Part shown: positions 4,868 to 61,686 of the stretch, one piece after another | Layout of the letters: each line of letters opens with the position of its first letter | Numbering within the stretch: position 1 is the stretch's first letter | Assembly (NCBI GenBank): GCA_947628135.1 | Contig: CANQYT010000001.1 | Location: forward strand, 129,285 to 193,284 | Length of the DNA: 64,000 bases | Reading direction: 5' to 3' | Source: an uncultured Clostridia bacterium | GTDB lineage: Bacteria > Bacillota > Clostridia > Christensenellales > CAG-314 | Notes under the pieces: generated by a model | What the model saw: the letters and a program-made list of their open reading frames with translations, nothing else | The model's database searches: none | What the model was told of the DNA's origin: nothing | Position numbers and translations under genes: made by a program

Positions 4868-5038
4868 ATGGCTCACAAAATCAGTAATGATTGTATTGCT
4901 TGCGGCGGTTGCCAAAGTGTTTGCCCCTGCGACGCTATCAGCGAAGGCGACGGCAAATTCGAAATTGCGGCAGATCTCTGCGTAGATTGTGGTGCGTGCG
5001 CAGCACAATGTCCGGTCGGCGCTATTGAAGAGGCTTGA
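4868..5038 (+). CDS. 2x[4Fe-4S] ferredoxin
   Basis: 56 aa from internal Met MAHKISNDCIACGGCQSVCP...CVDCGACAAQCP (two CxxCxxCxxxCP clusters). RBS GGAAAGGAG lies upstream and a terminator downstream. Confidence 0.9.
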   Translation: MAHKISNDCIACGGCQSVCPCDAISEGDGKFEIAADLCVDCGACAAQCPVGAIEEA

Positions 5039-5053
5039 CCGCCAATCTTTTCG

Positions 5054-5078
5054 CCCGAAGCGATGCTTCGGGTTTTTT
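5054..5078 (+). terminator. rho-independent terminator after the ferredoxin gene
   Basis: Hairpin CCCGAAGC-gatg-CTTCGGG followed by TTTTTT. Confidence 0.8.
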
Positions 5079-5324
5079 GTTGCAAAAAATCTTTCCGCGC
5101 ATACTTTTTCGGACGTTTTTACGTCGCCCGACTTTGCGGTGTTTTTCTTCGGGAACTGCGCCTCGCCGCGCAACCAAAAGGGCGATTGCGGACAAGCGCG
5201 GCAACTGCGGCGCGAGCAGTTTGTCTTTAAGCAAGGCGTTGGGCAGTCGGGTTTTGCCGCTTTTTGCGCACGCGCGCGCATTTTTTTACTTTACTAATCG
5301 CAAGCGATGAGGTAAAATAAACCT

Positions 5325-6062
5325 ATGGTAACGTTGAAAGCGCAAGAAACGATAGAAGATCTTCAATGCGACGGTCTGCGGCTTATACAATCGACAAAGG
5401 AGTACCGCTTCACGACGGACGCGGTGTTGCTTGCCAACTTCTGCAAGGATATGCGCGGCAAACTCTGCGTGGAGTTCGGCGCGGGCAGCGGCGTTGTGAG
5501 TATACTCGTCGCCCGCAAAAAACACCCCAAGCGTGTAGTGGCATTGGAAATTCAGCCGCAACTTGCCGATATGATGAAGCGCAGCGTACAACTCAACGGA
5601 CAGCAGGACGTTGTCGAAGTGTACGTTGCCGACCTCAAAGACGCCTGTCGGTACGTAAAGGACGCCGACGTCGTGGTGTGCAACCCTCCCTATCGCAAGG
5701 TGGGCAGCGGCGAGCGGCAACAGCAAAGCAACATCGCGCTGTGCCGTCACGAGATAGCGGCGACCCTTTCGGACGTCATCGTCAGCGCTTCCGCGGTACT
5801 CAACAATCGCGGCAGTTTGTATCTGGTACATCAGGCGAGCCGCCTTTGCGAGATAGTGACTTTGTGCCGCGACAGCGCACTTGCCGTAAAGGAGATACTG
5901 CCCGTATGTCCCACGCCCTCGCGCCCGCCGAATCTGGTGCTGATACGCGCGGTAAAGGGCGGCGCGGCGGATTGCAAACTGCTTTCTCCGCTGTACGTCA
6001 CGGACGAAGCGGGCAACTACACGAAGCAGGCGTCCGCTTGGTACGGCTTAGCGGACAATTGA
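5325..6062 (+). CDS. SAM-dependent methyltransferase, tRNA (adenine-N6) TrmN6/YabB-like
   Basis: 245 aa. SAM-binding motif VEFGAGSG and catalytic NPPY (VVCNPPYRK). Sits upstream of rsmI, as yabB does in Bacillus. Confidence 0.75.
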   Translation: MVTLKAQETIEDLQCDGLRLIQSTKEYRFTTDAVLLANFCKDMRGKLCVEFGAGSGVVSILVARKKHPKRVVALEIQPQLADMMKRSVQLNGQQDVVEVYVADLKDACRYVKDADVVVCNPPYRKVGSGERQQQSNIALCRHEIAATLSDVIVSASAVLNNRGSLYLVHQASRLCEIVTLCRDSALAVKEILPVCPTPSRPPNLVLIRAVKGGAADCKLLSPLYVTDEAGNYTKQASAWYGLADN

Positions 6063-7729: not shown

Positions 7730-9156
7730 AAAACAAAAAAATAGAAAACAAAGTCGCACAAAGTTTCAGCGACGCCAAACCGGACGTTTACGACGCCGTA
7801 TCGGCGCAATGTCCCACGCGCGCTTCGGCAAGTACGGCGGCAAAGAGAAGTTCCGTCGGCGGTTGGAGGATAGCGACCTGCGCGCTTGCCGCGATATTGG
7901 TGGTGGCTATCGTGTTCGGCGGAGTAGCCCTCGGACTGAGGGGCGGCAGTACGGCGGTTGCGGCTACCGTAACGTTGGACGTAAACCCCAGCATATCCGT
8001 TTCCGTTGACAAAAACAACTACGTCGTCGGCGTGGAAGCGCTCAATATGGACGGCGAAAAAATCATCGGCGATATGGATTTCAAAGGCTCTCACATAGGC
8101 GTTGCTGTATACGCGCTTATCGGCAAAATGGTGGTAAACGGCAAACTCAGCCTTGACGCAAATTCCATTTTGGTATCTATCGAAGCGGCTCAAAGCGATT
8201 ACGACGCGCTGTTGGACATAGTCTCCAACGAAATAGAGTATATGTTCGGCGACGCGAGCATAGTGTCCCAACGTCTGGACGACACCGCAAGGGCAAGAGA
8301 ACTTTCGGAAAAATACGGAATTTCCGTCGGCAAGGCGCAGTTGATAGTCAAGATACTTGACAAAGTGCCCGGCAAGTACGCGGAAGAACAACTTGTTTCT
8401 CTCAAAATCAACGAACTCAACCTAATTCTCGACGGTCTCGGAATGGCGGGCGAAGAGGTCGCTCAGACGGGCAGCGCCAACGACGGCAAGTATATCGGGC
8501 GCGAAGCGGCGATAGCCGCGGCTCTTGCAACGGTATCCGTAGGGCAACCCCCCGCAAACGTGCGCTGCAAGATGGATTTCGAGGACGGCGCGATGATATA
8601 CGAAGTGGAATTTGTCCACGGCGATTGGGAGTATGAAATAGGCATTGACGCCTTGACGGGCGAAACGTTGAGTTACGAGCGCGAACCGCTTACCAAGGTG
8701 CAGGGCACGCCCGTTTCGCAGGAAGAGGCAAAAGCAAAGGCGTTGGAACTTGCGCAAGTGCCCCAAGAGGACCGCGCAAACCTCACCGTCCACGCGCAAA
8801 CAAAGACCGACGACGGCGAAACGGAGTACGAAATCAACTTCGTCTACAACGGATACGCGTACGAATTCGAGTTGGACGGTTTCGGCAACGTGCGCGCCGC
8901 TTCCAAAAGGCAACCCTCTGCCACGGGAACGTTGGGATACGACGACGTCAAGCAACGCGTCGTCGAGGAAGTGACCAAGAACAGCAGATTTACATCTTTG
9001 AAACTTTCCGAAATACGCGATTGGGAGATAGAATTGGACTACGAACGCGGCAACAAGGTGTACGACATCGAATTTAAGTGGAACAACTACGAATTCGATT
9101 GTAAGTTAGACCCCAACACGGGCGCATTCACCTTCGAAGCGGAAATAGACGATTAA
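7726..9156 (+). CDS. anti-sigma-factor-like membrane protein with repeated PepSY-like extracellular modules
   Basis: Start overlaps the sigma gene stop by 4 nt (ATGA). One TM segment (CALAAILVVAIVFGGVALGL). The C-terminal half has repeated ...YEVEF / YEINF / YDIEF modules typical of PepSY. Confidence 0.6.
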   Translation: MKNKKIENKVAQSFSDAKPDVYDAVSAQCPTRASASTAAKRSSVGGWRIATCALAAILVVAIVFGGVALGLRGGSTAVAATVTLDVNPSISVSVDKNNYVVGVEALNMDGEKIIGDMDFKGSHIGVAVYALIGKMVVNGKLSLDANSILVSIEAAQSDYDALLDIVSNEIEYMFGDASIVSQRLDDTARARELSEKYGISVGKAQLIVKILDKVPGKYAEEQLVSLKINELNLILDGLGMAGEEVAQTGSANDGKYIGREAAIAAALATVSVGQPPANVRCKMDFEDGAMIYEVEFVHGDWEYEIGIDALTGETLSYEREPLTKVQGTPVSQEEAKAKALELAQVPQEDRANLTVHAQTKTDDGETEYEINFVYNGYAYEFELDGFGNVRAASKRQPSATGTLGYDDVKQRVVEEVTKNSRFTSLKLSEIRDWEIELDYERGNKVYDIEFKWNNYEFDCKLDPNTGAFTFEAEIDD

Positions 9157-33653: not shown

Positions 33654-33655
33654 AT

Positions 33656-33968
33656 TTTCCGACCACACGTGCGGCGGTCGATTGCTTGCTACTGCGTAAC
33701 GCTTGCGCAATCGACGGTTAAATAGACAACATTTACAAAACCGACTTCCTCGTCCGAAGTCGGTTTCTTTTTATACAGTGAGTAACATTATCCTGTGCGC
33801 TAACGCGCCGCCGCAGTCGGACTTGGGAGTGGTGCAGGAAACCTGCACGGTCGGATAAACCTTTCGCCGGGGTCTCCCATACCCCCGGCATCCCCGGGGA
33901 GGACGCAAAGCTTCGGTACACGCCCGAACTTTGCGGAGTTTGGTTGAAACTTTCCGACCACACGTGCG
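33656..33968. repeat. 18-nt perfect direct repeats (TTTCCGACCACACGTGCG) bracketing a 277-bp segment
   Basis: Copies at 33656-33673 and 33951-33968 (period 295 bp). The enclosed segment holds a terminator hairpin and, at 33863-33899 on the minus strand, a 37-nt GC-rich motif also present at 41309-41345. Confidence 0.8.
33741..33772 (+). terminator. rho-independent terminator downstream of smpB
   Basis: Hairpin CCGACTTC-ctcgtcc-GAAGTCGG followed by TTTCTTTTT. Confidence 0.75.
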
Positions 33969-34039
33969 ACAAGTCGTATCGGGTATTCGGTGAAAAAAGG
34001 CTTCACTTCGTGTGCCGCACCTAACAGGGTGCGGCACAC

Positions 34040-35095
34040 TTGTTGCAGATTATTCACATCAACTTGCAACTCAAAAAAGACCTTCCCCGTCACGGGTAAG
34101 CCGTTACGGGGAAGGGGGACTGCGCTCCGCGCGGTGGAAGAGGGATACTCGAAATCAACAATATCCATATTTTTCTCCTTACTCTCTACAACTTTGTCCG
34201 CAGGAAACTTATATTGTATCGCAATCGACCTTATTAACCTTCCCCGTCACGGGTAAGCCGTTACGGGGAAGGTGTCGCCCGACGGGCGACGGAAGAGGGG
34301 TTCTTTGAAACCAACTTACTTCTTTGCCCCCCCCCCTCTTTCGTCTGCTACGCAGCCACCTTCCCCGAAAGTCGCGCTTGCGCTGTTGACTGTCGGGGAA
34401 GGTCTGTTGCTAAACTGCACTTATGACTGCAAATACAGTGTGTTTTTGAGACGTTGTTTTTGTTATCGGTAAAATTGACAAAACAAGTGTAATTTGTTTT
34501 TTCTCTCACTCTGTCTACAACAACTTACATTAAACACTTTCCAACTTGTCTATATTCTTTTTCTCTCACCCCGTCCGCAGGATACCCACATCAACTCGCA
34601 ACTCAAAAAAAACCGTCCCCGTCAATTACGCACCGCGGAATTTACGGGGAAGGTGTCGCCCGACGGGCGACGGAAGAGGGTTTTATTGAAACCAACTTTT
34701 TTGCCCCCTCTTTCGTCTGCTACGCAGCCACCTTCCCCGAAAGTCGCGCTTGCGCTGTTGACTGTCGGGGAAGGTCTGTTGCCGAATTGCACTTATGACT
34801 GTAAATACAAGTGTGTTTTTGAGACGTTGTTTTTGTTATCAGTTGAATATACAAAACGGTGTAATTTGTTTTCTCTCACCCCGTCCGCAGGAAACCCACA
34901 TCAACTCGCAACTCAAAAAAAACCGTCCCCGTCAATTACGCATAGCGGAATTTACGGGGACGGGGGACTGCGCTCCGCGCGGTGGAAGAGGGCTTTTCCG
35001 AACCCAACTGTTTTTATCTCCAAGTCGGCGCGGCGCGCCCCGCAGGGGGCGGTAAGCCCAATGTCCAAAGTCGGGACGCAAAAACAAGTTTTTAC
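34040..35095 (+). repeat. modular hairpin-repeat array A (4 units)
   Basis: Heads GTCCGCAGGA(A/T)AC at 34196, 34573 and 34883, plus a head-less first unit. The hairpin CC(G/T)TCCCCGT...ACGGGGA(A/C)GG occurs 4 times. Two units carry the long second hairpin CCTTCCCCGAAAGTCGCGCTTGCGCTGTTGACTGTCGGGGAAGG. No plausible CDS. Confidence 0.9.
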
Positions 35096-40514: not shown

Positions 40515-41110
40515 TGTACGTGCCCTGTCCGCAGGAAACTCGCATTGTACTGCAACAAAACAACCTTCCCCGTCACGGGTAAGCCGTTACGGGGAAGGTG
40601 TCGCCCGACGGGCGACGGAAGAGGGGCTTTTCCGAAACCAACTCAATCCCTCGCCCCTCTTTCGTCTGCTACGCAGCCGCCTTCCCCGAAAGTCGCGCTT
40701 GCGCTGTTGACTGTCGGGGAAGGTCTGTTGCAGAATTGCACTTATGACTGTAAATACAGTATTGTTTTGAAACGTTATTTTTTTACTTTCTTTTTTAACT
40801 TTTCATCTATCAAATTTATTTACAATGTTCTGATTACCTTTTTTTGACCGCTTGTTTGTGTAGTTGTTTTTTATGTAAAAATTGTCTATATTATTTTTCT
40901 CCCACCCCGTCCGTAGGAAATTCACATCAAACAATTACAAACTTGTTCATTTTTTCTTTCACATTGTCCGCAGGAAACCCACATTGTATTGTGACAATAA
41001 AAACCGTCCCCGTCACGGGTAAGCCGTTACGGGGAAGGTGTCGCCCGACGGGCGACGGAAGAGGGGTTGTTGAACCCGACTGTTTTTATCTCCAAGTCGG
41101 CGCGGCGCGC
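40515..41110 (+). repeat. modular hairpin-repeat array B (3 units)
   Basis: Heads at 40527 (exact), 40909 (GTCCGTAGGAAA variant) and 40966 (exact). Unit 1 shares a 63-nt identical block and a 77/78 block with array A unit 1. Same orientation as array A. Confidence 0.9.
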
Positions 41111-41490
41111 CCCGCAGGGGTCGGTTGCAAGGAACGCCGTCAACCGAACCGACTTGCGTTTGGTCGGAACACACTTGCGTTTAATCGGAACATCATTACA
41201 AAATAAAATAGGAATTTGAGTGAGCGCAGGGCGTGTGGACACAACGCACAAGCGGAAAAAACTCAAATTCCGTCTGCAATCGGCGACAGGCGCGGCGATT
41301 GCAGCCCACCCCGGGGATGTCGGGGGTAGGGGAGACCCCGACGAAGTGTAAAAAAAAGAAGGCGCGTGCAGCGACTTCCTCAGTAGCCCGACCAAGTCGG
41401 CGCGGCGCGCCCCGTAGGGGTCGGTTGCAAGGAACGCCGTCAACCGAACCGACTTGCGTTTGGTCGGAATATACTTGCGTTTGGTCGGAA
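41092..41490 (+). repeat. 300-bp-period tandem duplication (about 1.3 copies) abutting the typA stop codon
   Basis: A ~99-nt block CCAAGTCGGCGCGGCGCGCCCCG(C/T)AGGGGTCGGTTGCAAGGAACGCCGTCAACCGAACCGACTTGCGTTTGGTCGGAA... starts at 41092 and again at 41392. It includes an internal 23-nt repeat, ACTTGCGTTT(GG/AA)TCGGAA. The 37-nt GC-rich motif sits between the copies at 41309-41345. Confidence 0.85.
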
Positions 41491-41491
41491 C

Positions 41492-57548: not shown

Positions 57549-58970
57549 ATGAAGAAAAAAATTGCATTGTTGCTTGCAGCAGTAATGGTTGTGGCAACTT
57601 TCGGAATGGTTCTTGCCGCTTGCGGGCTTTCCGACGAATCGATCCAGGCTCTTTACACTGAAATGAGCAGGTATCACCGCAACGACAAAGTCAATACCGA
57701 AGAAAACTACACCTTGATCGGACACATTACCACGATCACCGACGACGGCGAAGTGGATGCTTATGTTCGCTGGACATCCAGTTCCGACAAGGTGGTCATT
57801 TCCTCCGAAATGAACAACGCGGGTTTCTACACGGTTACTATTCCCGATCGTACTACCTTGACGGAGGATATCAACTACACTATTACGGGTACGCTTGTTG
57901 ACGCCGACGGAAAGGAGTACAAGGACGCTGACGGCAACCCCTACTCGGTTACACTCAATCGTGTCGTTCCCAAGTACACCTCTGAACTTGACATTGTAGA
58001 CACCCTCACCACGGGCAACTACAAGATCCTTATGCGTGATGAAACCAACGACAAGATTTGGTATGCCAAAGGAGAAATTTACGGTGGCTACTACCTTGCA
58101 ATAACCGAAGACAAAACCGAAGCCGCCGTTTTCACAATTACCGTAGATAACGGTAGCTACGCAATTCAAGTTAACGGCAAGTATCTCGAAGCCTACAAGG
58201 TTTACAATAGCAGCAAGGATAGATATTATGTAGACTTGCGCTTGGTCTCCACCCCCTCCACATCTGATGACCTGCTCACTCTCACTTGGGATACCGAACA
58301 CAAAACATTCTATGTTGATCTCAACGGAACAAACTATTTCCTTGGTGTAAACTACCAAAGCGGCACGACCACTCTGTACAGAGAGGCTATCGGTGCTTCC
58401 GACGCGAGATATGTTGACAGTGCAAACAACTTCCCCATTCATTTTGTTACAACGACCGACCAACCTGATGGCAGCGTTGACCAAGGTACCAAGTACGGCA
58501 TCAAGCAAGCGACCGAACTCCAAGTCGGCACCGACTACTACCTTGGTTTGTACAACACTCAGGTTAGCACCTGGTACTTCTTTACCGGTGTAATGGGCGG
58601 TTACAATAACTTCTACTTTGCCACCTCTGACAACAAGGACGAGGCAGCGGCAGTAGTTTTGGAATCGCACGAAGACGGCTACTACATCAAGGTCAAGAGT
58701 AGCGGCAAGTATTTGACTCTCGGACCTCGCAGCGGTGACTACACCAAGAGTACTTTGAGCCTTGAAGATACAGCGTCTACCGTTTGGAAGTACGACGAAA
58801 CGACTAAGTGCTTTACTACCGAGTTGACAAATGGTGAAAATACCTACAAATTCTACCTTGGCAACTACGGTGCAAACGTAGATTTAAGCGGACTTGCTCG
58901 TTTTGATAGTGGCAACTATCCCGCTTTGTTAGGTGAGATTGTTACTGCAAGCGAAGCTAAAACGGCATAA
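57549..58970 (+). CDS. lipoprotein of unknown function
   Basis: Met 54 of ORF 57390..58970, preceded by AAAGGAGAG. Lipobox LAAC. Beta-rich with internally similar halves (YYLAITEDKTEAAVFTI and FYFATSDNKDEAAAVVL). Confidence 0.7.
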   Translation: MKKKIALLLAAVMVVATFGMVLAACGLSDESIQALYTEMSRYHRNDKVNTEENYTLIGHITTITDDGEVDAYVRWTSSSDKVVISSEMNNAGFYTVTIPDRTTLTEDINYTITGTLVDADGKEYKDADGNPYSVTLNRVVPKYTSELDIVDTLTTGNYKILMRDETNDKIWYAKGEIYGGYYLAITEDKTEAAVFTITVDNGSYAIQVNGKYLEAYKVYNSSKDRYYVDLRLVSTPSTSDDLLTLTWDTEHKTFYVDLNGTNYFLGVNYQSGTTTLYREAIGASDARYVDSANNFPIHFVTTTDQPDGSVDQGTKYGIKQATELQVGTDYYLGLYNTQVSTWYFFTGVMGGYNNFYFATSDNKDEAAAVVLESHEDGYYIKVKSSGKYLTLGPRSGDYTKSTLSLEDTASTVWKYDETTKCFTTELTNGENTYKFYLGNYGANVDLSGLARFDSGNYPALLGEIVTASEAKTA

Positions 58971-59124
58971 CCTAAACCTCAACAGAAGAAGTTGACGATG
59001 TCGCAAATCGGATACCTGCAAGGTCGGTTTGTTCTGATTCAACAATGGACAATGGCTGTATCTTACGGGACTATGAGCGGCAACGCAAGCGGGCAAAGCC
59101 GACGTAAACTTCAATCAAAACAAA

Positions 59125-59156
59125 ACACCCGAGGATTTCCCCTCGGGTGTTTTCTT
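59125..59156 (+). terminator. rho-independent terminator preceding array C
   Basis: Hairpin ACACCCGAGG-atttcc-CCTCGGGTGT followed by TTTCTTT. Confidence 0.8.
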
Positions 59157-59189
59157 TGCCCGCGACCCGCCGCTAACCTATTTTCTACA

Positions 59190-61412
59190 TATTTTCTATT
59201 TTTCTTCCTGTCCGCAGGAAACATATATTGTATCGCAACCATTAAAACAACCGTCCCCGTCAATTACGCATAGCGGAATTTACGGGGAAGGGGGACTGCG
59301 CTCCGCGCGGTGGAAGAGGGGGTTTCCGAAATGATTTGTATACCCTTTAACAACCCGCTACGTCGGACGTGGTGGAAGAGGTTTTTTCCGAAACCCTATT
59401 ATTTTTCACACCGCGACATCGGAGATGGCTTTTCGAAATTTGTATATTCTCTGCCAACCCGCTACTTTCGACTTCCCTCTCACCCTGTCCGCAGGAAATA
59501 AATTTTGCACGGCGATGAAAGACCTTCCCCGTCACGTATGAATTTCTCCAATATGTATTTTTGCTATCACCTGTTCTAAATGTCTGTATTTTTTATTTCC
59601 CCTGTCCGCAGGAAACGTATATTGTATCGCAATCATTAAAACAACCGTCCCCGTCACGGGTAAGCCGTTACGGGGAAGGTGTCGCCCGACGGGCGACGGA
59701 AGAGGGTTTCTCCGAAATCAACTCACTCCCTTGCCCCTCTTTCGTCTGCTACGCAGCCACCTTCCCCGAAAGTCGCGCTTGCGCTGTTGACTGTCGGGGA
59801 AGGTCTGTTGCTCGATTGCACCTATGACCGTAAACACAGTGTGTCTTTGAGTAGTTGTTTTTGTTGTCAGTTAAATTCACCAAACGAGTTAGTTTGTTTT
59901 CTCACACTTTGTCCGTAGAAAATGCAAATCACCCGCAAAAAATTTGTATATTCCATATTTCATTTCTCTCCCTGTCCGCAGGAAATAAATTTTGCACGGC
60001 GATGAAAGACCGTCCCCGTCACGTGTGAATTTCTCCAATATGTATTTTTGCTATCACCTGTTCTCAATGTCTGTATTTTTTTTACCCCTGTCCGCAGGAA
60101 ACGTATATTGTATCGCAACTATTAAAACAACCGTCCCCGTCACGGGTAAGCCGTTACGGGGAAGGTGTCGCCCAACGGGCGACGGAAGAGGGTTTCTCCG
60201 AAACCAACTCATTCCTTTGCCCCCTCTTTCGTCTGCTACGCAGCCACCTTCCCCGAAAGTCGCGCTTGCGCTGTTGACTGTCGGGGAAGGTCTGTTGCTA
60301 AATTGCACTTATGACTGCAAATACAGTGTGTTTTTGAAACGTTGTTTTTTTGTTATCGGTAAAATACACAATGCAAGTGTAATTTGTTTTTTCTCACTCT
60401 GTCCGCAGGAAATAAATTATGCACGGCGATGAAAGACCGTCCCCGTCACGTGTGAATTTCTCCAATATGTATTTTTGCTATCACCTGTTCTCAATGTCTG
60501 TATTTTTTTTACCCCTGTCCGCAGGAAACGTATATTGTATCGCAACCATTAAAACGACCGTCCCCGTCACGGGTAAGCCGTTACGGGGAAGGTGTCGCCC
60601 AACGGGCGACGGAAGAGGGTTTGTTGAAATGATTTGTATACCCTTTAACAACCCGCTACATCGGACGTGGTGGAAGAGGGTTTTCCCGAAACTATTTTTA
60701 TTTTTCACACCGCGACATCGGAGAGGGCTTTTCGAAATTTGTATATTCTCTGCCAACCCGCTACTTTCGACTTCCCTCTCACCCTGTCCGCAGGAAATAA
60801 ATTTTGCACGGCGATGAAAGACCGTCCCCGTCACGGGTAAGCCGTTACGGGGAAGGTGTCGCCCAACGGGCGACGGAAGAGGGTTTCTCCGACGCCAACT
60901 CACTCTCTTGCACCCTCTTTCGTCTGCTACGCAGCCACCTTCCCCGAAAGTCGCGCTTGCGCTATTGACTGTCGGGGAAGGTCTGTTGCTCGATTGTACC
61001 TATGACAGTAAATAAAGTATGCTTTTGAAACGTTGTTTTTGTTATCAGTTAAATACACAAAGCAAGTGTAATTTGTTTTCTCTCCCTGTCCGTAGGAAAC
61101 GTATATTGTATCGCAACCATTAAAACAACCTTCCCCGTCACGGGTAAGCCGTTACGGGGACGGGGGACTGCGCTCCGCGCGGTGGAAGAGGGTTTGTTGA
61201 AATGATTTGTATACTCTTTAACAACCCGCTACATCGGACGTGGTGGAAGAGGGTTTTCCCGAAACCATTTTTATTTTTCACACCGCGACGTCGGAGAGGG
61301 CTTTTCGAAATTTGTATATTCTCTGCCAACCGCGCTGTCTAACGAGGTGGAAGAGGGGTTAATTGAAACCGACTCACTCCCTCGACCCCATCTTTTGTCT
61401 GTCGAAATGCCC
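59190..61412 (+). repeat. modular hairpin-repeat array C (9 units plus one degenerate head)
   Basis: Heads at 59210, 59487, 59604, 59974, 60090, 60401, 60517 and 60786 (exact GTCCGCAGGAAA), at 61088 (GTCCGTAGGAAA), and a degenerate one at 59911. Short (~115 nt) and long (~270-370 nt) units alternate. No RBS-led ORFs. Confidence 0.92.
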
Positions 61413-61449
61413 CTCAACTCGCGCGTTTGCGCGATTGAGTGCGTTTTTT
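61413..61449 (+). terminator. rho-independent terminator closing array C
   Basis: Hairpin CTCAACTCGCGC-gttt-GCGCGATTGAG followed by tgcgTTTTTT. Confidence 0.75.
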
Positions 61450-61686
61450 CTTTTCAAAAACCGCCTTTTTTGCAATTTTTACCCCCATTTGCGCAAAAAG
61501 TTTAGAATAACTAATCAAAACGTTTGACATTACTTAACCATTGCTATATACTGTCATTGTTGCCCGTGGCAAACAAATTTATTTTCGTATATGCAAGCGG
61601 TCGTGCTTGCGCCGTGAGATACGGCGGTACTGTAAATAACTTGTTGGTTGCCGTCGGGTATTTTTTTGTATCGGGAGGTGTCGATA

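Follow-up and report, generated by a model that had tools for sequence, protein, structure and literature searches.

A repeat array in ordinary chromosome

The window analyzed here, 64,000 nucleotides of contig CANQYT010000001.1 from an uncultured Clostridia bacterium, is ordinary chromosome that carries purC, nrdR, dnaX, recR, ispDF, pgk, tpi, gpmI, rnr, smpB, bipA, glmS and ABC transporter genes. At 59190–61449 lies a repeat array that the original prediction described as a single locus of nine head-to-tail units. Our results revise this picture: the repeat unit is a double-hairpin core of ~80 nt present in both orientations, and the array is one cluster of a dispersed family. The family is real and not previously described, and it varies a kind already known, the interspersed structured repeats of bacteria. 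On balance, we favor a reading in which these intergenic repeats form a mosaic, multi-copy family that is amplifying and restricted to one lineage, with the array as its largest local cluster.

The array contains nine heads, six complete double-hairpin cores and three truncated short units. Eight exact copies of the head CTGTCCGCAGGAAA lie on the + strand at 59208, 59485, 59602, 59972, 60088, 60399, 60515 and 60784, and a ninth, with one mismatch, lies at 61086 on the same strand; all nine had been predicted, at coordinates 2 nt too high. The head has 17 matches in the whole window at ≤2 mismatches, compared to 0.5 expected by chance. A head hairpin, CCUG-UCCG-CAGG, was considered and rejected, as it is broken by CCG variants and by the form CCATTCGCAG found in metagenome-assembled genomes (MAGs). 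Direct-repeat analysis recovered the predicted modules, namely two leader versions (L1 in five copies and L2 in four), the first hairpin of the core (P1), the second hairpin (P2) in two versions and three near-identical short units, together with eight copies of the box GGAAGAGGG and three copies of a ~156-nt "tail" module. The leaders are homologous variants of each other and not spacers, and a role as guide-like variable segments was rejected. Tandem Repeats Finder reported nothing on the array because the units are mosaic, without a fixed period. The core pattern TCCCCGTCA-N10-20-TTACGGGGANGG-N16-22-GGAAGAGG has six occurrences in the array and 12 in the 64-kb window, compared to 0 expected.

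Both terminators predicted to flank the array are present. The left border is a two-way intrinsic terminator of the upstream operon (59122–59158, no strand assigned), whose hairpin at 59122–59153 has a 14-bp stem flanked by an A run and a T run. The right border is a hairpin at 61421–61444 followed by TTTTTTCTTTT. The array holds no supported coding sequence. Its open reading frames (ORFs) have no Pfam match, reading frames are not preserved between paralogous units, and a translated array ORF found a single spurious homologue among 5.8 billion proteins. The earlier claim that no credible coding sequence exists stands as to coding content, with the correction that ORFs of ≤146 amino acids do traverse the array.

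The core and its covarying hairpins

The core consists of an A-rich tract, hairpin P1, hairpin P2, the purine box GGAAGAGG(G) and then a semi-conserved segment of approximately ATATCCGAAACCAAYT. P1 has the form CCKTCCCCGTCA-apex-TTACGGGGAMGG; its basal stem is invariant and its apex stem variable, with a 2x2 internal loop between them. The joint between P1 and P2 is short (GGGGGA or TG), and the 10 nt before P1 contain 5.7 A on average. We aligned 33 cores (alignment A1) and built a covariance model (R1) from the core. P2 is paired at 99.4% across the 33 cores, with changes on both sides in three of its five pairs (CG/UA, GC/AU and CG/UA), and the core search pattern placed no constraint on P2. 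The P2 covariation score was reached by 0 of 500 shuffles, and compensatory changes separate the stem variants ACCGCC/GGCGGT, ACCACC/GGTGGT and GTCGCCC/GGGCGAC. The P1 apex has 15 sequence variants, most of which give a short stem, some only via an internal G.A/A.G mismatch. Because pairing in P2 and in the P1 apex survives sequence change, a folded single strand is under selection.

This covariation also bears on whether the array could serve as a set of duplex DNA sites bound by a regulatory protein, a nucleoid protein or gyrase, much as BIME-2 and RIB elements bind gyrase or IHF. Such a role would suit the invariance of P1, the box and the loops within a genome, as well as the palindromic symmetry of the doublets described below. 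We consider it very improbable, since the compensatory changes alter the stem sequence yet keep the pairing, which speaks for a folded single strand and not for a fixed duplex motif, and no candidate protein was identified.

Inverted doublets and the composition of the units

The long units are inverted doublets of cores. Model R1 matches the minus strand of the window at 59730–59812, 60217–60299, 60908–60990, 34329–34411, 34701–34783 and 40650–40732, and inverted cores score about 35 bits in the window and 60–67 bits in MAGs. The matches coincide with the long-range partner CCCCTCTTTC and third hairpin that had been taken for separate modules; the two are actually one inverted, diverged core. 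The reverse-complemented inverted arm is collinear with the forward core (A-rich tract, P1-like hairpin, TGG, P2-like hairpin and GAAAGAGGG). It is from the minus-strand matches and this collinear alignment that the doublet structure follows. In the MAG Lapin-002 bin65, the inverted arm is nearly identical to the a-type forward core of the window and is followed by a T run. The two cores of a doublet stand box to box around a linker of ~30 nt, the whole measuring about 190 nt, and their boxes pair mutually. Forward and inverted cores lie 20–30 nt apart at six sites in the window and at five in MAGs.

Cores occur alone, as inverted doublets, or strung together with linker modules, which are a pyrimidine tract with head and leader, an AT-rich spacer, degenerate "T-tail" cores and truncated short units. 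The array mixes these forms, with all units on the + strand. Unit 1 (59208–59484) has a head, an L1 leader, a forward core with b-type P2 and long P1 apex (59242–59325, 73 bits) and a T-tail of degenerate cores (tail family D4/D6, 59304–59459). The three short units of ~116 nt, S1 (59485–59601), S2 (59972–60087) and S3 (60399–60514), have a mutual identity of 95–98%; S2 and S3 were delimited by direct-repeat analysis, and S1 comprises a head, an L2 leader, the 5' half of P1 only, unrelated AT-rich sequence and a T run. Their folding is poor, at about −16 kcal/mol over 116 nt. The long unit at 59602–59971 carries a head, an L1 leader, a forward core (59636–59711, 82 bits on +), a linker, an inverted core (59730–59812, 36 bits on −) and an AT-rich spacer. 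The next long unit (60088–60398) has a forward core at 60122–60197, an inverted core at 60217–60299 whose reverse complement is collinear with that forward core, and a spacer hairpin followed by a T tract. Unit 7 (60515–60783), resolved by direct repeats and the covariance model, consists of a head, an L1 leader, a forward core (60549–60624) and a T-tail (60603–60758) that includes a degenerate core (60643–60685). In unit 8 (60784–61085), an L2 leader is joined to a complete doublet (forward core 60813–60888, inverted core 60908–60990) according to direct repeats, the covariance model and the fold; this unit had been predicted to be a chimera of short-unit leader and long-unit body, and the module shuffling that it implies is confirmed. 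Unit 9 (61086–61454), identified by head search and covariance model, has the mismatched head, an L1 leader, a b-type forward core (61120–61197), a T-tail (61176–61331), the last box (61349–61357) and the right terminator with its T run.

Dispersal within one lineage

The core family is found at two further loci of the window, both on the + strand and both identified by pattern and covariance model. The second locus (34060–35020) has forward cores at 34072–34149, 34229–34304, 34604–34685 and 34914–34997 and inverted cores at 34329–34411 and 34701–34783. The third (40520–41080) has forward cores at 40555–40630 and 40995–41070 and an inverted core at 40650–40732; it lies between convergent genes, downstream of bipA, and the contig L031 is 100% identical across it. 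Among 185,579 species-representative genomes, the core pattern is present at 23 loci, all intergenic and all in four rabbit-gut MAGs. The carriers are Lapin-002 bin65, Lapin-012 bin87 and Lapin-012 bin45 (hereafter bin65, bin87 and bin45), labeled "uncultured Clostridia bacterium", plus a contig in a Gastranaerophilales bin. Carrier accessions are CANQCN, CANQND and CANQNJ. The Gastranaerophilales contig (L016, Lapin-014 bin53, labeled Candidatus Gastranaerophilales, 4939–5433) is a 5.9-kb contig with bin87-type cores; it is likely a mis-binned Clostridia contig, and horizontal transfer is the alternative.

A purely local satellite or an assembly artefact is scarcely credible as an explanation of the array. 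Blocks within the array are up to 98% identical, which would fit recent local duplication, but the search for further copies found the family at the two other window loci and in four other genomes. Nor is the array a product of assembly, because independent short-read contigs reproduce both of its ends: contig L053 equals the window at 100% identity through 59702, and at the 3' end, contigs L061 and L062 agree with it at about 99% identity. Many core loci in MAGs lie within 500 bp of a contig end, and contigs assembled from short reads of the window's own strain likewise end within the arrays. Core repeats fragment the short-read MAG assemblies of this lineage.

Outside these genomes, the family is rare or absent in the collections searched. 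Viral contigs, plasmids and phages contained no match, and the strict pattern had 0 matches in JGI/ENA metagenome contigs. A relaxed pattern gave mostly chance matches in coding sequence of metagenomes, together with two real distant single-copy relatives with a short P1 (L038 and L049). The statement that the array belongs to no known RNA family held in our scans: Rfam 15 had 0 matches in the window at gathering thresholds, the array (59000–61650) gave only noise at E ≤ 10 (E ≥ 1.6), and 20 MAG loci yielded one tRNA only. We found no description of the core family in the literature. A hammerhead ribozyme was considered for strings of the form CTGATGAG...GAAA in bin87 modules and rejected, as they have no Rfam match and stem II is unsuitable.

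Variation between strains and relatives

A close relative has no array at the orthologous site. This relative, the MAG GCA_947625725.1, comes from the same rabbit cohort. It matches the window collinearly over 7.4 kb, at 88% DNA identity, from the ABC operon to the gene before the array, and collinearity resumes from 61495 onward at 80% identity. At the array position, it has galK and fic and no core (L063 8695–11911, orthologous to window 58970–61495). Four relatives with 87–90% BipA identity have no core in about 80 kb around bipA, and in the nearest relatives by BipA ("Clostridiales bacterium" MAGs and "Corallococcus sp. CAG:1435"), the orthologous spacer has plain terminators. GCA_022508345.1 also counts among the close non-carriers. 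As a separate observation, the gene before the array differs in its C-terminal part in GCA_947625725.1 (564 amino acids vs 473).

Unit number is probably polymorphic between strains. In contigs from two other samples, 98.8% identical to the window in unique DNA, a short unit is joined directly to unit 9; these contigs lack 571 bp, corresponding to units 7–8, and the junction falls within a head. Arrays that vary in this way can be used as strain markers. For two contigs of the same species with low coverage, L024 (3758–4410) and L025 (1697–2080), collinearity with the window ends precisely at borders of modules downstream of smpB (window 33952 and 34054); one break follows GTTGCAGATTATT, and both contigs then enter different loci, reflecting either strain-level rearrangement at repeats or chimeric assembly.

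Hairpin variants are genome-specific, which indicates concerted evolution. The P2 and apex variants are GTCGCCCRACGGGCGAC and ACTGCGCTCCGCGCGGT in the window, ACCGCCGTTAGGCGGT in bin87 and ACCACCGACAGGTGGT in bin65, and they are uniform within each genome. Among the six long units from the three window loci, identity is high in P2 (97%), the box (96%), box' (100%), P2' (100%), P1' (99%) and TCTGTTGC (100%), and low in the pyrimidine tract (46%), leader (55%), linker (67%) and spacer (73%). In the short units and in similar elements of bin87, the core breaks off at the P1 tip; unrelated sequence comes next, and after it a whole P1. Junctions at palindrome tips would be the expected trace of hairpin-stalled template switching or of hairpin cleavage and repair. 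The 14–16-nt duplications around the half-P1 junctions belong to P1 itself.

Folding, promoters and orientation

The long units fold very well and the short ones poorly. For the long unit at 60088–60398, the fold is far beyond shuffled sequences (z = −5.95), with predicted helices P1, P2, box:box' and P1', closed by the leader pair GCAAC:GUUGC; the original description of the units as hairpin-dense thus applies to the long units and fails for the short ones. Strand assignment from minimum free energies of both strands and G.U counts was tried and discarded as inconsistent, with the window slightly favoring + and the inverted arms of MAGs folding better on the opposite strand.

This fold speaks for a serious if unlikely alternative, in which the array comprises separate genes for structured small RNAs, each transcribed on its own, or else a single precursor that is processed. 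In this scheme, a long unit would give a five-helix RNA of ~185 nt (leader closure, P1, P2, box:box', P2' and P1') that starts just after the −10-like TATATT of the leader and ends at the AU-rich spacer hairpin with its U tract. The closed multi-branch structure, the covariation of P2 and the P1 apex, and the G.U pairs in several + strand helices (box:box', b-type P2 and the T-tail hairpin) all suit an RNA. The + strand is slightly favored in the folds of all six window doublets, the last unit closes with a canonical terminator, and terminators insulate the array on both sides. Tandem small RNA gene arrays exist, such as NsiR1 in Nostoc, with head-to-tail short non-coding units, a conserved 5' motif and a 3' hairpin, and the array shares these features.

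The promoter evidence is less favorable to small RNA genes. Two of the nine heads give a 9/12 sigma-70-like match (TTTACC-17-TATATT), but four promoter-like sites were found compared to 3.2 expected, with no enrichment over shuffles. The −35 element is variable, and neither L3-type leaders nor the leaders of MAGs contain the −10-like element. Heads as promoters were rejected, being neither enriched nor conserved. The array differs from tandem small RNA arrays in its mosaic, invertible and dispersed units and in its absence from a close relative, and no conserved promoter was found at its heads. Cores occur in both orientations, and their orientation relative to neighboring genes is random: for genes transcribed toward cores, the first core reached is terminator-like in 11 cases and forward in 13. 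No single strand is favored across the family, the family is missing from the orthologous site of the relative with 88% identity, the hairpin variants are genome-specific, and the short units are without structure. The long structured or processed non-coding RNA array proposed earlier is weakened by this orthologous-site absence, concerted evolution, random orientation and lack of a conserved head promoter.

A narrower form of the idea, which we regard as rather doubtful, is that the doublet long units encode a new class of ~185-nt pseudo-symmetric five-helix RNA, in many copies per array and each with a weak promoter in head and leader and a terminator in the AU-rich spacer. If true, this RNA could be a scaffold or sponge for proteins that is peculiar to this lineage of Clostridia.

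The opposite strand suggests another function. Read on that strand, a core consists of a CU box, P2, P1 and a U-rich tract, and cores could have been domesticated as terminators or insulators, with a doublet stopping transcription from both sides and arrays giving fail-safe insulation and protection of 3' ends. The A-rich sequence upstream of P1 would become the U-rich tract after it, the inverted arms of bin65 are followed by T runs of 4–9, two of the three window loci lie between convergent genes, and the module that closes the array, a canonical terminator, shows homology to the P1' module. We nevertheless hold this to be quite improbable. The first core met stands in terminator orientation in only 11 of 24 cases, genes adjacent to the arrays already have canonical terminators (59122–59153 and ~33740–33775), and downstream of the array (locus C) nothing is transcribed toward it. 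Nine units far exceed the needs of insulation, and relatives do without the core family.

Comparison with known repeats

The organization of the cores resembles that of REP, REPIN and BIME repeats. REP elements are defined as extragenic high-copy palindromes with GTAG or GTGG 0–2 nt 5' of the hairpin, and a "long hairpin" REP has two stems, the basal one separated from the second by a small internal loop (Quentin et al., PMC6006769). P1 of the core has this long-hairpin geometry (PMC6006769). Like REP, REPIN and BIME repeats, the core family is extragenic, high-copy and hairpin-forming, with 12 cores in 64 kb and at least 23 MAG loci. In both, single units, inverted doublets and clusters are mixed with a few linker motifs, variants are genome-specific and concerted, and distribution is patchy among relatives. 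The two arm types of the core family are comparable to the Y and Z types of REP. The arrangement of cores matches the way REP, REPIN and BIME repeats are organized in proteobacteria.

The differences from REP are also clear. The core is ~80 nt with two hairpins and a purine box, compared to 20–40 nt and one hairpin in REP. The arms of the window doublets differ in apex and P2 and cannot zip into one long REPIN hairpin. REP families are mobilized by RAYT, the product of a single-copy Y1/HUH gene with the repeats on its flanks, and no RAYT was found for the core family in the DNA examined (Pfam in the window and an IS200 TnpA probe in ~480 kb of related DNA). Hosts of REP are proteobacteria, whereas the core family resides in a Clostridia lineage and forms clusters of up to 2.3 kb. 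Doublets, clusters and long-hairpin geometry are shared, but the GTAG or GTGG 5' of the hairpin is missing, and we do not file the core family as REP; it behaves like REP and BIME yet is distinct from them.

Other repeats are more distant. Pneumococcal BOX elements, previously named as the closest analogue in organization, are likewise modular, intergenic, in a Gram-positive host, variable in module number and predicted to form stable stem-loops (PMC3049150). BOX has a fixed linear order with complementary ends A and C, while the hairpin cores take either orientation. BOX shows no visible sequence resemblance to the core family, whose units and arrays are much larger. The two were compared by organization only, and REP, REPIN and BIME are closer. 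ERIC/IRU, Correia, RUP and other miniature inverted-repeat transposable elements (MITEs) are, like the core family, intergenic non-coding imperfect palindromes of 100–200 bp whose presence varies between close relatives. The doublet arms are inverted repeats; terminal inverted repeats with a flanking target-site duplication could not be delimited, and the analysis found neither a pair of empty and filled sites nor a parent insertion sequence. Arms of the core family also differ in containing internal covarying hairpins, and its elements form tandem mosaics. CRISPR and ToxI arrays share with this array a tandem non-coding character. The array has no constant short repeat alternating with unique spacers, its units of 116–370 nt are homologous throughout, and no cas, toxN or abiE gene was found near it with Pfam, in agreement with the earlier view that it is neither CRISPR- nor ToxI-like.

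A probable non-autonomous amplifying repeat family

Among the three functions originally proposed, a cluster of non-autonomous hairpin elements fits best. The cores would be non-autonomous DNA elements copied within the genome by a trans-acting enzyme that recognizes the folded single strand. Arrays may grow, shrink and shuffle modules through recombination or template switching at the conserved heads and hairpin tips. Effects on transcripts, such as stable 3' hairpins or termination by P1 and the U-rich tract on the opposite strand, would be a by-product and not the reason for the array.

Several observations weigh against this reading. Searches of the window (Pfam) and of about 480 kb of related DNA revealed no transposase, no Y1/HUH enzyme and no reverse transcriptase, and the IS200 TnpA probe likewise gave nothing in the 480 kb; as no mobilizing enzyme was found in the DNA examined, we purely infer that the cores are mobilized. 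Neither a target-site duplication nor a clean empty site for a single core was found, and no GTAG or GTGG lies 5' of the core hairpin, which is preceded by AACAA, AAAGA or ATTAA on the forward strand and by GACA or CCCC on the reverse strand. Within a genome, neither loops nor stems vary, and conservation of P1 and the box extends across species, a pattern that would suit a functional RNA, or a site bound by a protein, as well. The + strand carries all 12 forward cores of the window and gives the slightly better fold in six of six window doublets, and the two terminators that bracket the array could mark a separate transcription unit.

For a bacterium, the repeat load is very high: of the 64 kb in the window, the core and its allied modules account for about 4.8 kb (about 7.5%). 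A REP-like organization without the sequence hallmark of REP, and with RAYT not seen in the DNA examined, suggests convergent hairpin-based intragenomic replicators or an unrecognized mobilizing enzyme. If transcribed, the double hairpin with its purine box would be a new RNA motif.

Allied modules and other observations

Other dispersed modules occupy the 400 nt after smpB. At 33654–34060, no tmRNA gene was detected after the gene order secG-rnr-(152 amino acids)-smpB: neither ARAGORN nor Rfam reports one in the window, and ARAGORN finds no tRNA there either. A divergent tmRNA at 33654–34060 was considered and rejected, as this segment consists of dispersed modules that also occur after an unrelated gene in L003. 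One of these, a hairpin-plus-terminator module at 33659–33823, recurs after a permease gene, unrelated to smpB, in bin87 (L003 246–411, 82% identical), and a second copy lies in L025 (1835–1931).

A second, unrelated repeat family, CCAAGTCGGCGCGGCGCGCCCCGCAGGGG...GACTTGCGTTTGGTCGGAAC, is present at 41092–41191 and 41392–41491 and also at 35000–35053. The core arrays at the other two window loci (A and B) both end in this module. Two of its copies, 95% identical, flank a hairpin-rich segment of 200 bp, in which about 41300–41345 is the reverse complement of about 33868–33905.

Beside the solitary distant core in L049 (ERZ772860), two unit copies at 8640–8480 and 8190–8050 each contain a perfect TTGCAT-17-TATAAT promoter, a structured segment of ~100 nt and a terminator; they look like a duplicated small RNA gene unrelated to the core family. 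Series of short GC-rich hairpins separated by a constant heptamer, ACTTCAC or GTGAAGT, occur in the MAG loci L007, L010, L018 and L021, and the window has an analogue with a 21-nt period, ACTTGCGTTTRRTCGGAAC, at 41152–41192. These heptamer-hairpin runs are further members of the modular repertoire of these genomes.

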